Assembly (NCBI RefSeq): GCF_003334785.1
Contig: NZ_QOWV01000003.1
DNA length: 64,000 nucleotides
Origin: Escherichia coli
Lineage (GTDB): Bacteria; Pseudomonadota; Gammaproteobacteria; Enterobacterales; Enterobacteriaceae
Strand: one strand, 5' to 3'
Position 1 is the first letter of the stretch, and every line of letters starts with the position of its first letter. The position numbers and the translations under genes were made by a program. Positions 26,153 through 54,153 of this stretch are shown here, one piece after another. The notes under the pieces were generated by a model that did no database searches, was not told where the DNA came from, and saw nothing but the letters and a program-made list of their open reading frames with translations.

Positions 26153-26180
26153 CTCAGAAAGCGGCCTTAACGATTACAGC
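26153..26180 (-). terminator. terminator hairpin between convergent yjbR and uvrA
   Basis: aaaaggccgctcagaaagcggcctt: stem aaggccgc/gcggcctt; T-rich tail on the minus strand (uvrA side). Confidence 0.65.
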
Positions 26181-28996
26181 ATCGGCTTAAGGAAGCGTGC
26201 CGTGTGTGATGCTTCGCACTCCGCGACGGTTTCTGGCGTACCGGAGACGAGGATCTCGCCGCCACCACTGCCGCCTTCTGGTCCCAGGTCGACAATCCAG
26301 TCAGCGGTTTTGATCACGTCGAGATTGTGCTCAATCACCACAATGGTGTTGCCCTGATCGCGCAGTTTATGCAGTACGTCGAGCAGTTGCTGAATATCGG
26401 CGAAGTGCAGACCGGTGGTCGGCTCGTCGAGAATATACAGCGTCTGCCCGGTGCCGCGTTTTGACAGTTCACGCGCCAGCTTCACGCGCTGGGCTTCACC
26501 GCCTGAAAGGGTGGTTGCGGACTGCCCCAGTCGAATGTACGTCAGGCCAACGTCCATCAACGTTTGCAGCTTACGCGCCAGTGCAGGTACGGCATCAAAG
26601 AACTCACGCGCCTCTTCGATGGTCATATCCAGCACTTCGTGGATGGTTTTGCCTTTGTACTTAATCTCCAGCGTTTCACGGTTATAGCGTTTACCTTTGC
26701 ACTGGTCGCACGGCACGTAGATATCCGGCAGGAAGTGCATCTCCACTTTGATCACGCCATCGCCCTGACAGGCCTCGCAGCGTCCGCCACGAACGTTAAA
26801 GCTGAAACGTCCCGGCGTATAGCCGCGCGCACGGGATTCCGGTACGCCCGCAAACAGTTCGCGCACAGGCGTAAACACGCCGGTATAGGTCGCCGGGTTA
26901 GAACGTGGAGTACGACCAATTGGGCTTTGGTCGATATCGATCACTTTATCGAAATGCTCCAGCCCCTGAATATCGCGATACGGTGCTGGTTCGGCGATGG
27001 TCGCCCCATTCAACTGGCGTTGGGCAATCGGGAACAGTGTGTCGTTAATCAGCGTCGATTTACCGGAACCTGAAACCCCGGTGATGCAGGTAAACAGACC
27101 CACCGGCAGCGTCAGCGTCACGTCCTTCAGGTTGTTGCCGCGTGCGCCTGTCAGCTTCAGCACTTTTTCCGGATTCGCCGGAACGCGTTTCTTCGGCACT
27201 TCAATCTTGCGTTTGCCGCTCATGTACTGCCCGGTCAACGACTCCGGCACCGCCATAATCGCTTCCAGCGGACCTTCTGCGACCACTTCACCGCCGTGAA
27301 CACCTGCGCCCGGGCCAATGTCGATCACATGGTCAGCGGCGCGAATTGCGTCTTCGTCGTGCTCCACCACAATCACGGTATTACCGAGATCGCGCAGATG
27401 GATAAGCGTACCCAACAGGCGCTCGTTATCACGCTGGTGCAGGCCGATAGACGGCTCGTCCAGCACGTACATAACGCCAACCAGGCCCGCACCAATCTGG
27501 CTCGCCAGACGGATACGCTGTGCTTCACCGCCAGAAAGCGTTTCTGCCGAGCGGGAAAGCGTCAGGTAATTCAGGCCGACGTTAACGAGGAATTTCAGAC
27601 GATCGCCGATCTCTTTAAGGATTTTTTCTGCAATCTTCGCCCGCTGACCTGCGAGTTTGAGATTGTTGAAGAATTCCATCGCATGACCAATGCTCATGTC
27701 GGAGATAGCAGGCAGCGGCGTATTCTCGACATACACGTGGCGCGCTTCCCGACGCAGACGCGTCCCTTCGCAGCTGGCGCACGGACGATTACTGATAAAC
27801 TTGGCTAATTCTTCGCGTACCGCGCTGGATTCCGTCTCTTTATAGCGGCGCTCCATATTATGCAGCACGCCTTCGAACGGATGACGACGAATGGAGGTAT
27901 CGCCACGATCGTTCATGTATTTGAATTCAATGTTTTCTTTGCCAGAACCGTACAACACCACTTTATGCACGTTCGCGCTCAGGCTGCCCCACGGCGCTTC
28001 GACGTCGAACTTATAGTGATCTGCCAGCGATTTCAGCATCTGGAAATAATAGAAGTTGCGGCGATCCCAGCCACGGATCGCACCACCAGCCAGCGACAGT
28101 TCCGGATTCTGGATCACTCGATCAGGATCGAAATATTGCTGTACGCCAAGGCCGTCGCAGGTCGGGCAGGCCCCCGCCGGGTTGTTAAACGAAAACAGTC
28201 GCGGCTCCAGTTCACGCATACTGTAGCCGCAAATTGGGCAGGCGAAGTTGGCGGAGAACAGCAGCTCTTCCGCTTTCGGGTCGTCCATATCCGCCACTAC
28301 CGCGGTACCACCGGAAAGCTCCAGCGCGGTTTCAAATGACTCGGCAAGACGTTGGGTAAGATCGTCACGCACCTTGAAGCGATCAACCACCACTTCAATG
28401 GTATGTTTCTTTTGCAGTTCCAGTTTTGGCGGATCGGAAAGATCGCAGACTTCGCCATCAATACGAGCACGGATGTAGCCCTGGCTTGCCAGGTTCTCCA
28501 GCGTTTTGGTGTGTTCGCCTTTGCGCTCTTTAATGATTGGCGCGAGTAGCATCAGACGCTTGCCTTCCGGCTGCGACAGCACGTTATCCACCATCTGGCT
28601 GACGGTTTGCGCCGCCAGCGGGACGTCGTGGTCCGGACAGCGCGGCTCGCCAACGCGGGCGAATAACAAACGCAAATAGTCGTGGATTTCGGTGATTGTC
28701 CCCACCGTAGAACGCGGGTTATGAGACGTCGATTTCTGCTCAATTGAGATGGCAGGAGAAAGCCCCTCAATATGATCGACGTCCGGCTTTTCCATCAGTG
28801 ACAGAAACTGCCGCGCGTAGGCGGAAAGGGATTCAACGTAACGGCGCTGCCCTTCGGCATATAAGGTGTCGAAAGCGAGCGAGGATTTGCCAGAACCCGA
28901 AAGCCCGGTCACGACAATGAGCTTGTCGCGGGGGATAACGAGGTTGATGTTTTTGAGATTATGGGTGCGGGCGCCCCGAACTTCGATCTTATCCAT
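26174..28996 (-). CDS. uvrA: excinuclease ABC subunit A
   Basis: 940-aa [60 protein letters not shown]...; two ABC ATPase modules and zinc-finger cysteines. Confidence 0.97.
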
Positions 28997-29081
28997 TCAC
29001 CTTTCCCGGATTAAACGCTTTTTTGCCCGGTGGCATGGTGCTACCGGCGATCACAAACGGTTAATTATGACACAAATTGAC

Positions 29082-29097
29082 CTGAATGAATATACAG
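29082..29097. promoter_or_regulatory. LexA operator shared by divergent uvrA and ssb promoters
   Basis: ctgaatgaatatacag = CTGT-N8-ACAG palindrome class, located between the uvrA and ssb starts. Confidence 0.85.
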
Positions 29098-29249
29098 TAT
29101 TGGAATGCATTACCCGGAGTGTTGTGTAACAATGTCTGGCCAGGTTTGTTTCCCGGAACCGAGGTCACAACATAGTAAAAGCGCTATTGGTAATGGTACA
29201 ATCGCGCGTTTACACTTATTCAGAACGATTTTTTTCAGGAGACACGAAC

Positions 29250-29786
29250 ATGGCCAGCAGAGGCGTAAACAAGGTTATTCTCGTTGGTAATCTGGGTCAG
29301 GACCCGGAAGTACGCTACATGCCAAATGGTGGCGCAGTTGCCAACATTACGCTGGCTACTTCCGAATCCTGGCGTGATAAAGCGACCGGCGAGATGAAAG
29401 AACAGACTGAATGGCACCGCGTTGTGCTGTTCGGCAAACTGGCAGAAGTGGCGAGCGAATATCTGCGTAAAGGTTCTCAGGTTTATATCGAAGGTCAGCT
29501 GCGTACCCGTAAATGGACCGATCAATCCGGTCAGGATCGCTACACCACAGAAGTCGTGGTGAACGTTGGCGGCACCATGCAGATGCTGGGTGGTCGTCAG
29601 GGTGGTGGCGCTCCGGCAGGTGGCAATATCGGTGGTGGTCAGCCGCAGGGCGGTTGGGGTCAGCCTCAGCAGCCGCAGGGTGGCAATCAGTTCAGCGGCG
29701 GCGCGCAGTCTCGCCCGCAGCAGTCCGCTCCGGCAGCGCCGTCTAACGAGCCGCCGATGGACTTTGATGATGACATTCCGTTCTGA
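29250..29786 (+). CDS. ssb: single-stranded DNA-binding protein
   Basis: ORF 29187-29786; start placed at ATG 29250 ([36 protein letters not shown]...) giving 178 aa; Gly/Gln-rich linker and acidic tail DFDDDIPF. Confidence 0.95.
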
Positions 29787-32593: not shown

Positions 32594-33058
32594 ATGGAAA
32601 AGAAATTACCCCGCATTAAAGCGCTGCTAACCCCCGGCGAAGTGGCGAAACGCAGCGGTGTGGCGGTATCGGCGCTGCATTTCTATGAAAGTAAAGGGTT
32701 GATTACCAGTATCCGTAACAGCGGCAATCAGCGGCGATATAAACGTGATGTGTTGCGATATGTTGCAATTATCAAAATTGCTCAGCGTATTGGCATTCCG
32801 CTGGCGACCATTGGTGAAGCGTTTGGCGTGTTGCCCGAAGGGCATACGTTAAGTGCGAAAGAGTGGAAACAGCTTTCGTCCCAATGGCGAGAAGAGTTGG
32901 ATCGGCGCATTCATACCTTAGTGGCGCTGCGTGACGAACTGGACGGATGTATTGGTTGTGGCTGCCTTTCGCGCAGTGATTGCCCGTTGCGTAACCCGGG
33001 CGACCGCTTAGGAGAAGAAGGTACCGGCGCACGCTTGCTGGAAGATGAACAAAACTAA
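32594..33058 (+). CDS. soxR: MerR-family redox-sensing regulator with 2Fe-2S cluster
   Basis: 154-aa [39 protein letters not shown]...; [12 protein letters not shown] cluster-binding motif. Confidence 0.95.
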
Positions 33059-33191
33059 AGCGCCACAAGGGCGCTTTAGTTTGTTTTCCGGTCTTTGTCT
33101 TTCTCTCTATCCCGCTGGTACACAGGAGGGTTTCCCCCGACGTCAACACACCTCATTCGAGCACGTGGTGGAGGTTCCGGTTGGTGTTGAT
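33052..33191 (-). ncRNA. ryjA: possible small RNA RyjA (placement approximate)
   Basis: Recalled from K-12 annotation as a ~140-nt sRNA antisense to the soxR 3' end; the only sequence support is the bidirectional terminator hairpin at 33056-33086. Confidence 0.3.
33056..33086. terminator. bidirectional terminator hairpin at the soxR 3' end
   Basis: ctaaagcgccacaagggcgctttagtttgtttt: stem ctaaagcgcc/ggcgctttag; T-rich tail on plus, TTTTGTT on minus. Confidence 0.7.
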
Positions 33192-35006: not shown

Positions 35007-35103
35007 CCGCACATTGTGTGAGCTTTTGCGATATTCTGAAAAAATGAGAATTCAGGCATAACGTCTTTCTCAGATCATAAAAAACATCGCAAACAGGGAA
35101 CGC

Positions 35104-52005: not shown

Positions 52006-54153
52006 TTACGCCAGTGCCGCTTCGCGCAGGCGAGTTTTCAACTTGTTGTACTCGTCAATCACGTACTGCTCGGCGGCGCGCTGATCGGCGATCGGCTCGA
52101 CGCGAACGGCGCAGTATTTGTACTCCGGCGTTTTCGTAATCGGGCTTAAGTTTTCAGTAACCAGCTCGTTACAGGCACCAATCCACCACTGGTAGGTCAT
52201 GTAAATCGCCCCTTTGTTCGGACGATCGCTGACCTGCGCACGGGTGATAATTTTGCCTTTACGCGAGTGCACCCAAACCAATGCCTCATCTTCAATACCC
52301 AGACGTTTGGCGTCTTCGGTATTGATTTGTGCGTAGCCAGGTTCATCAGCCAGCGCCGCCAGTGCCGCACAGTTACCGGTCATCGAACGGCAAGAGTAGT
52401 GACCAACTTCACGCACCGTTGACAGTACCATCGGGTACTCGTCGGTGAGTTTGTCGATTGGCGCTACCCAGTCGCAGGTGAAGAACTGCGCCAGACCGTT
52501 CGGGGTATCAAACTTCTCTTTAAACAGATAAGAAGTCCCCTGATCGGCATCTGAAGTATCGCGGCAAGGCCACTGAATGAAGCCCAGTTCGCCCATTTTC
52601 TCGTAAGTCGCACCGTAGAAATCCGGGCACAGATGACGCAACTCATCCCAGATCTCCTGGGTGTTGTTGTAGTGCATCGGATAACCCATACGGGTGGCGA
52701 TTTCACTGATGATTTGCCAGTCCGTTTTCAGATCCCATTTCGGTTCAACCGCCTTGAAGAAACGCTGGAAGCCACGGTCAGCCGCAGTAAACACGCCTTC
52801 ATGCTCGCCCCACGACGTTGACGGTAAAATAACATCCGCCGCCGACGCGGTTTTGGTCATAAAGATGTCCTGAACGATAACCAGTTCCAGATCTTCAAAG
52901 GCTTTACGTACTGCCGACAGCTCCGCGTCAGTTTGTAGCGGATCTTCGCCCATAATGTACGCGGCACGCACTTCGCCATGCGCTGCGCGGTGCGGCAGCT
53001 CGCTGATGCGATAGCCGGTATGCGCTGGCAGGCTTTCCACGCCCCAGGCTTTGGCGAATTTCTCGCGGTTAGCCGGATCTTTCACGTACTGGTATCCCGG
53101 ATACGTATCCGGCAGCGCGCCCATATCGCAGGCACCCTGAACGTTGTTCTGACCACGAACCGGGTTAACACCCGCATGCGGCTTACCGAGGTTACCGGTC
53201 AGCATCGCGAGGCTGGTCAGAGAACGCACGGTTTCCACGCCCTGGTAGAACTGGGTTACACCCATGCCCCACAGGATGGCGGCGCTTTTCGCCTGGGCAT
53301 ACATCCGTGCCGCCTGACGAATCTCACTGGCGCTGACGCCGGTGATATCTTCAACCGACTCCGGCGTGTAGCCTTCAACGATTTTACGATACTCTTCAAA
53401 GCCTTCTGTACGTGAAGCGACGAACGCTTTGTCGTACAGATTTTCTTCAATAATGACATGGCCCATCGCATTCAACAGCGCGATGTTCGAGCCGTTTTTC
53501 AGTGCAATGTGCATGTCAGCAATGCGCGCGGTTTCAATTTTGCGCGGATCGCAGACGATAATTTTCGCCCCGTTACGTTTAGCGTTAATTACGTGATTCG
53601 CCACGATTGGGTGGGAATCCGCCGGGTTGTACCCGAAAACGAACACTAAATCGGTATTATCAATTTCGTTAATAGCATTGCTCATTGCGCCATTACCGAC
53701 CGATTGGTGCAGACCTGCAACCGATGGGCCGTGTCAGACACGAGCGCAGCAGTCAACGTTATTGGTACCAATAACGGCGCGCGCAAATTTTTGCATTACA
53801 TAGTTGGTTTCGTTACCCGTACCACGCGAGGAGCCGGTCGTCTGGATGGCATCCGGACCGTACTTCTCTTTGATGGCGCTCAGGCGCTCGGCAACGTAAT
53901 TCAGTGCCTCATCCCAGGAAACAGGTTCGAGTTTGCCGCCACGCTGGCGACGGATCATGGGGGTTTTCAGGCGCGGGGTCAGGATCTGGGTATCGTTAAT
54001 GAAGTCCCAGCCATAATAACCCTTCAGACACAGGGTACCCTGGTTGGTTTTCCCCTGCGCTGCCTCCGCCCGGACGATTTTGCCGTTATCGACGACCAGG
54101 TTGATTTTGCAACCTGATGCGCAATAGGGGCAAACCGTGACGACTTTTTTCAT
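52006..54153 (-). CDS. fdhF: formate dehydrogenase H, selenocysteine-containing (UGA recoded as Sec at codon 140)
   Basis: ORF track splits it into 53734-54153 (MKKVVTVCPYCASGCKINLV...CCARV) and 52006-53685, in the same frame and separated only by one TGA (reverse complement of 53734-53736); reading through gives 715 aa. Confidence 0.93.
53690..53733 (-). other. SECIS stem-loop directing selenocysteine insertion at the fdhF UGA
   Basis: Minus-strand sequence directly 3' of the UGA reads cacggcccatcggttgcaggtctgcaccaatcggtcggtaatgg, matching the fdhF SECIS hairpin as I remember it (GGUUGCAGGUCUGCACC apical stem-loop). Confidence 0.8.

Follow-up and report, generated by a model that had tools for sequence, protein, structure and literature searches.

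The SOS box between divergent uvrA and ssb in a K-12-like segment of the Escherichia coli chromosome

The spacer between the divergently transcribed uvrA and ssb genes contains one LexA-like site, at positions 29080 to 29099 of the window, by which we mean the whole stretch of 64,000 nucleotides analyzed here. This site is very probably the uvrA/ssb SOS box of E. coli, at which a LexA dimer binds a single, imperfect palindrome. The box lies between both genes, and its sharing appears to be asymmetric, as it covers the predicted -35 element of the only good promoter facing uvrA and, on the ssb side, at most a distal promoter. The uvrA/ssb SOS box has been known since the early 1980s, and the regulatory region of the two genes was reportedly described by Brandsma et al. 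in 1983 and 1985. The site in the window is identical to that of the K-12 reference, and there is nothing new in the site itself.

The operator in its genomic setting

The window is a K-12-like segment of the E. coli chromosome with 99.98% identity to MG1655. It is collinear with the MG1655 sequence NC_000913.3 (window coordinate + 4,244,875) and differs from it at 15 mismatched positions and by a 1-nt indel; a 113-bp repeat near 51 kb also has three copies fewer in the window. The single-nucleotide change is a deletion relative to MG1655 in an A-run near 35045. The repeats are tandem REP-containing units of 113 bp in the gltP/yjcO interval (50956-51220), where the three absent units amount to about 340 bp and where naRNA4/REP matches were found at 51035-51105 and 51148-51218. 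The lower number of REP units, the 15 mismatches, and the 1-nt deletion together indicate that the window derives from a close relative of K-12 and is not the MG1655 reference itself. Two further elements were recognized elsewhere in the window: the Hfq-binding small RNA sraL/RyjA (33051-33191, minus strand, 153 bits), which runs antisense to the soxR 3' end and overlaps it according to the MG1655 annotation, and a bacterial SECIS element (53687-53741, minus strand, 87 bits) inside fdhF at the expected region of the selenocysteine codon.

The genes and the operator that are the subject of this analysis are arranged as follows.

26174-28996, minus strand: uvrA coding sequence, excinuclease ABC subunit A (open reading frame and RefSeq annotation of identical DNA)
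29080-29099, minus strand: LexA operator (SOS box), a 20-mer reading TACTGTATATTCATTCAGGT from 29099 to 29080 (sequence, matrix score, orthologues, and identity to MG1655)
29250-29786, plus strand: ssb coding sequence, single-stranded DNA-binding protein (sequence, translation, and RefSeq annotation)

The first-pass annotation of this DNA had described a region of about 250 bp between divergent uvrA and ssb, and the measured spacer agrees with this: it runs from 28997 to 29249 (253 bp), with uvrA on the minus strand and ssb on the plus strand, and is identical to that of MG1655. The operator lies 83 nt from the uvrA ATG. On the other side, the ssb start is at 29250 and not at 29251, with 150 nt between the operator and the ssb ATG, so that the start of the box is 170 nt from that codon. 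The 501 bases around the operator had a match in all 5,426 complete E. coli genomes searched (5426/5426), nearly all at 99% identity or more, and the RefSeq annotation under these matches is uvrA and ssb1. The 46 nt immediately around the box were identical in 4,684 of 5,427 E. coli records, and the rest carried one or two changes; in two variants that were sampled, the change was at 29079 in one and at 29081 plus 29099 in the other, positions that flank the core and leave CTG...CAG intact. The uvrA–ssb region was also present on four E. coli records labeled as plasmids, and at least one genome carried two copies of it. These plasmid-labeled or duplicate copies may be artifacts of assembly or labeling, or they may be large chromosomal segments carried on secondary replicons.

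The core of the operator has the form CTG-N10-CAG, with CTG at 29082-29084 and CAG at 29095-29097. Read on the plus strand, the 16 nt at 29082-29097 are CTGAATGAATATACAG; the minus strand gives CTGTATATTCATTCAG, which is CTGT-N8-TCAG. A perfect CTGT-N8-ACAG palindrome had been claimed at these coordinates; the position and the CTG-N10-CAG element hold, and the sequence departs from the claimed palindrome by one mismatch. Of the two half-sites, TACTGTAT is canonical, and the second has CTGA in place of CTGT. On the minus strand, seven of the eight central positions (ATATTCAT) are A or T, which makes the center of the operator A+T rich. The only perfect CTGT-N8-ACAG in the window belongs to lexA box 1. 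When one mismatch was allowed, the pattern was found 18 times against 16.9 expected in the window; as it is not enriched, the bare pattern carries no weight, and the score against a full matrix was used instead.

A LexA matrix was built de novo and without the uvrA/ssb site, from the 200 nt upstream of 14 other K-12 SOS genes (recA, sulA, umuD, uvrB, dinG, uvrD, recN, dinB, dinD, dinI, yebG, ruvA, sbmC, and polB), using palindromic expectation-maximization with no prior motif. The search converged on TACTGTATATATATACAGTA, with one clear site per gene scoring between 14.5 and 28.3 bits, and the resulting matrix reproduces TACTG(TA)5CAGTA, the gammaproteobacterial LexA operator consensus. As five of the 14 operators used for training carry CTGG/CCAG in one or both half-sites, the CTGA half-site of the uvrA/ssb box is not disqualifying. 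With this matrix, the site at 29080-29099 scored 17.6 bits, the third best score in the 64 kb and inside the range of the training operators. Only three sites in the window reached 14.5 bits or more: the uvrA/ssb box and the two operators of lexA, which are placed as follows.

12193-12212, plus strand: lexA operator (matrix scan, 18.4 bits)
12214-12233, plus strand: lexA operator (matrix scan, 18.2 bits)
12240-12848: lexA, controlled by these two operators
12867-14246: dinF, co-transcribed with lexA and controlled by the same two operators

When the whole 64 kb was shuffled 300 times (dinucleotide-type shuffles), two of the shuffles contained a site of 17.6 bits or more, and the maxima were 11.7 +/- 2.0 bits; the chance expectation is about 0.0067 per window and about 3e-5 per 253-bp spacer. 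The second-best LexA-like position in the spacer scored 5.7 bits against 17.6 for the box, which leaves one operator in the spacer. The first-pass description of the operator as single is thus borne out, and the position-weight matrix, although the site was withheld from its construction, places the site among accepted operators. Three lower-scoring LexA-like positions elsewhere in the window were dismissed as lying within the noise of the shuffles: 51957-51976 (12.5 bits, about 47 nt upstream of yjcO) and 42825-42844 (12.4 bits, about 45 nt upstream of nrfA), each of which also lacks one of the invariant triplets, and 6060-6079 (10.7 bits).

Conservation of the operator and the uvrA promoter

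Orthologous regions were collected by scanning UvrA residues 1-250 against species-representative genomes, which gave 80 gammaproteobacterial loci whose flanks were fetched over 2.5 kb. The arrangement of uvrA, ssb, and the box differs among the groups sampled.

Enterobacterales (42 loci): ssb divergent and adjacent in 40 of the 40 loci with upstream DNA present; spacer 214-533 bp
Pasteurellales (8 loci): ssb next to uvrA in divergent orientation, with 143-164 bp between them; 7 of 8 loci with a single box scoring 12 bits or more
Tolumonas (1 locus) and Photobacterium (2 loci): ssb divergent and adjacent; one box each, at 19.0, 21.1, and 21.7 bits
Vibrio (8 loci): ssb 2.0-2.2 kb away; uvrA preceded by a strong box (21-26 bits) at a distance of 65-144 nt
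Alteromonadales and other (unclassified) loci (16 loci): uvrA and ssb not neighbors; a box of 12 bits or more near uvrA in 4 of these

In each of the 42 Enterobacterales loci, one site and no more reached 12 bits (12.2-22.1, median 16.2), and the CTG and CAG triplets were invariant in all 42 boxes. In 32 of the 42, the box lies exactly 10 nt from the hexamer of the conserved uvrA -10 element (TGnCATAAT). An alignment of the spacers of 28 Enterobacterales, in which identity was counted to the E. coli base, gave values of 0.92 for the operator core, 0.94 for the uvrA extended -10, and 0.90 for the ssb ribosome-binding site, while the remaining 162 positions of the spacer averaged 0.41. The box and the uvrA -10 are the best-conserved parts of the spacer across the Enterobacterales, and the most conserved 10-mer of the spacer is the uvrA extended -10. 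In the Pasteurellales, too, the box forms the conserved core of the spacer. The conservation of the box and its 10-nt spacing to the uvrA -10 argue that the operator is tightly coupled to the uvrA promoter. Direct observations on these DNAs comprise the site, its score against the matrix, its being the only one in the spacer, the degree to which it is conserved, and the fixed distance between it and the uvrA -10.

One of the collected loci comes from a 2,882-nt contig (L047, JAATFR010000166.1) labeled "MAG: Hyphomicrobiales bacterium." The N terminus of its UvrA is 94% identical to that of E. coli, and its LexA box is the same as that in Acerihabitans (L044). The contig probably belongs to the Enterobacterales and was misbinned into an alphaproteobacterial metagenome-assembled genome.

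Where the gene pair is split, as it is in Vibrio, the box follows uvrA and not ssb. No box was present within 300 nt upstream of ssb in the eight Vibrio loci, the best score there being 8.5 bits or less. As the Vibrio box stays with uvrA and leaves ssb without one, LexA control of ssb does not appear to be an independently maintained trait in that genus. The divergent orientation of ssb and uvrA is kept in these loci (L059, L069, L070, L072, L075, L080, L082, and L083), with the genes about 2 kb apart. In the one locus that was examined for intervening genes (L072), a gene for a LuxR/CsgD-family regulator and galU lie between ssb and uvrA, both in the orientation of uvrA, and the LexA box is located between galU and uvrA.

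A peculiarity of the enterobacterial box is a nonconsensus T at operator position 15 (window position 29085), which creates the CTGA half-site and was present in 40 of the 42 Enterobacterales. This base stands at 2% in the matrix, which is the pseudocount floor; it costs about 5 bits and is essentially absent from other SOS boxes. The adjacent ATTCA (29086-29091) is nearly invariant in the Enterobacterales. Because T15 has been kept despite its cost of about 5 bits, and because the adjacent ATTCA is equally fixed, the box might be a deliberately weakened, dual-use sequence that serves both as a LexA half-site and as part of the uvrA -35 region and that was selected for a high basal level of uvrA. 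Either a role in the uvrA -35 region or selection for a LexA affinity of intermediate strength might account for such a base. According to this proposal, the box would ancestrally have been a uvrA operator, and the coregulation of ssb would be a by-product of adjacency that was lost in Vibrio. We offer this only tentatively and consider it somewhat less probable than its negation.

Predicted promoters facing uvrA and ssb and their proposed control by LexA

Promoter positions were assigned by a relaxed scan together with conservation, and the start sites are predicted rather than mapped. A strict scan of 28900-29350 for sigma-70 promoters and terminators found neither, and the supplement text of the Cappable-seq and Kim 2012 studies listed no start sites for the uvrA–ssb region in either MG1655 coordinate version. 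The elements proposed for the spacer are the following.

29064-29072, minus strand: predicted uvrA extended -10, TGtCATAAT, with the hexamer at 29069-29064 and the TG at 29072-29071 (relaxed scan and conservation)
29087-29092, minus strand: predicted uvrA -35 hexamer, TATTCA, with a 17-bp spacer, wholly inside the operator (relaxed scan)
29093-29098, plus strand: candidate -10, TACAGT, of a distal, LexA-repressible ssb promoter, inside the operator (relaxed scan)
29125-29133, plus strand: second upstream ssb promoter candidate, TGtAACAAT (relaxed scan and inverted repeat)
29171-29176, plus strand: weak ssb-facing candidate, CATAGT (relaxed scan)
29194-29216, plus strand: candidate proximal ssb promoter block, consisting of TGgTACAAT (29194-29202), a CGCGCG discriminator, and TACACT (29211-29216) (relaxed scan)

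One good promoter faces uvrA in the relaxed scan. TGtCATAAT is the sole minus-strand match in the spacer that has five of six -10 positions together with the TG, and the operator contains the whole of the predicted -35 hexamer. With a uvrA start predicted near 29057, the operator would span about -23 to -42. A 12-nt inverted repeat (29064-29075 and 29122-29133, 83% complementary) connects the two sides of the operator, one arm being the uvrA extended -10 on the minus strand (TTGTGTCATAAT) and the other its plus-strand mirror image, TTGTGTAACAAT, which lies 26 nt past the operator. The stretch at 29060-29074 (GTTAATTATGACACA) overlaps the uvrA -10, and its first half resembles an ArcA half-site. 

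On the ssb side, TACAGT (29093-29098) is a weak -10 candidate with a poor -35 and a predicted start near 29105, and its -10 character is lost in species with a CCAGT half-site. TGtAACAAT, the mirror of the uvrA extended -10, has a predicted start near 29140 and is conserved in close relatives only. The proximal block is conserved across the Enterobacterales (identity of 0.79-0.81) and is located about 100 nt from the operator, which would place it beyond occlusion by LexA bound there. G+C-rich discriminators are typical of growth-rate-controlled or stringently controlled promoters, and the CGCGCG of the proximal block would fit the reported dependence of ssb on growth phase. No RNA family was detected in the spacer by Rfam at gathering thresholds, and the folding of a putative long ssb leader (29105-29262) was not considered meaningful (z = -2.0; 7 of 200 shuffled sequences folded just as well).

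The predicted uvrA -35 inside the operator agrees with what has been published. One SOS box common to uvrA and ssb has been described (PMC9505508; for Salmonella, PMC8072944), with a heterology index of 6.98 (Fernandez de Henestrosa et al. 2000, cited by PMC9505508). LexA is reported to bind at this box (literature reviewed in PMC9505508). The box is described as overlapping the uvrA -35, and ssb as having three promoters of which only the most distal is controlled by LexA (PMC9505508). For uvrA, transcriptome sequencing (RNA-seq) after azidothymidine (AZT) treatment showed 3.9-fold induction and a 4.4-fold lexA dependence (PMC11228462), and its expression was SOS dependent in PMC9505508 as well.

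We therefore take the LexA dependence of expression from the literature, and the geometry of occlusion proposed here would follow from the predicted promoter positions. In undamaged cells, LexA would occupy 29080-29099 and cover the uvrA -35 hexamer along with the promoter spacer; with LexA on the -35, RNA polymerase would be excluded and uvrA would be held at a moderate basal level. The same LexA dimer may also cover the -10 region of the back-to-back distal ssb promoter on the opposite strand. Upon DNA damage, RecA filaments would trigger the self-cleavage of LexA and the operator would empty, at which point uvrA would rise several-fold and the distal ssb promoter would add to the transcription of ssb. 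Most ssb transcription would come from proximal promoters 70-130 nt downstream, out of the reach of LexA. Proximal promoters that are unaffected by LexA would give high and largely SOS-independent expression of ssb that is weakly or conditionally inducible.

Alternative readings and comparison with known systems

The first-pass annotation had called the operator shared by uvrA and ssb. For uvrA this is well founded, as there is one box between the genes, it overlaps the predicted uvrA -35, and measurements have shown LexA control of uvrA. For ssb the statement needs qualifying, since at most a distal promoter is within reach and induction of ssb is inconsistent between studies; the results on its inducibility have been in conflict for four decades (PMC9505508). 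It could be argued that the box is functionally an operator of uvrA only and that ssb is adjacent through synteny, without meaningful control by LexA under physiological conditions. In the AZT experiment in which uvrA responded clearly, ssb was induced 1.5-fold with a lexA dependence of 1.0 (PMC11228462), and three microarray studies and several protein assays of the 1980s (radioimmunoassays) showed no ssb induction (PMC9505508). Digital PCR during normal growth found ssb mRNA to be equal in the wild type and lexA3, with uvrA about 30% lower in lexA3 (PMC9505508). The position of the Vibrio box points in the same direction, as do the proximal ssb promoter elements, which are conserved and lie at a distance of about 100 nt. 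However, reverse transcription-quantitative PCR (RT-qPCR) showed ssb to rise about 18-fold after UV with no increase in lexA3, and to be about 520-fold higher in lexA71(Def) (PMC9505508). In Salmonella, nalidixic acid induced uvrA 11-fold and ssb 9.6-fold, with a common box whose heterology index is 6.99 (PMC8072944), and published fusion work assigned one LexA-repressible promoter to ssb (PMC9505508). The -10-like TACAGT that faces ssb from inside the box is also more in keeping with some LexA control of ssb. On balance, we regard an operator that acts on uvrA alone as unlikely, and we prefer a shared box with unequal effects on the two genes.

We give almost no credence to the idea that an A+T-rich near-palindrome arose here by chance in promoter DNA, or that the site serves mainly a different regulator, such as ArcA. 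The lack of enrichment of the loose one-mismatch pattern would be compatible with chance, and an ArcA site has been drawn in the uvrA–ssb spacer (PMC9505508, Fig. 1); the ArcA chromatin immunoprecipitation supplements mention neither uvrA nor ssb. Against this stand the rarity of the full-matrix score among the shuffled windows, the CTG and CAG triplets that do not vary among the 42 Enterobacterales while the flanking spacer shows about 41% conservation, and the measured LexA dependence of uvrA. An adjacent ArcA site would, moreover, be additional to the LexA box rather than an alternative to it. The proximity of the box to lexA-dinF raises a further question, which is whether the four genes form a meaningful SOS neighborhood whose colocation has been selected. 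A distance of 16.9 kb separates the uvrA/ssb operator from those of lexA, in line with the earlier statement that the four SOS-controlled genes fall within 17 kb. However, with about 31 LexA loci on a circle of 4.64 Mb, about 3.4 pairs within 17 kb are expected by chance, and the probability of at least one such pair is about 0.97; the proximity thus carries no information. The earlier count of two unrelated genes between the SOS units has to be corrected, as MG1655 annotates 14 protein genes and one small RNA between dinF and uvrA (yjbJ, zur, yjbL, yjbM, dusA, pspG, the small RNA pspH, qorA, dnaB, alr, tyrB, yjbS, aphA, yjbQ, and yjbR). These are unrelated to the SOS units and are encoded on both strands, and selection for a four-gene neighborhood appears very improbable to us.

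The uvrA/ssb SOS box is a founding example both of control by LexA and of a regulatory region between divergent genes, and recent papers continue to debate how much LexA contributes to the expression of ssb. Modest support for the asymmetric, uvrA-centered arrangement comes from the comparisons made here, since the box follows uvrA when the genes are split.

Compared with the known E. coli K-12 uvrA/ssb SOS box, the site in the window has the same sequence (TACTGTATATTCATTCAGGT), the same position, and the same flanking genes, and no difference was found. The uvrA/ssb box of Salmonella enterica is likewise single and located between the divergent genes, and both genes are induced by damage there; the induction of ssb by nalidixic acid in that organism is stronger than in most E. 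coli measurements (PMC8072944). The double operator of lexA (12193-12233) belongs to the same motif class as the uvrA/ssb box and scores slightly higher with each of its two sites. It differs in layout, as lexA has two adjacent boxes that serve one unidirectional operon and lie 7-47 nt from the ATG, whereas uvrA and ssb have one box in a bidirectional region. The Vibrio uvrA box (TACTGTTTTTTTATCCAGTA, 65 nt upstream of uvrA) is orthologous to the E. coli operator and lies at a similar distance from the ATG, but it is nearer to the consensus than the E. coli box and is not common to ssb.
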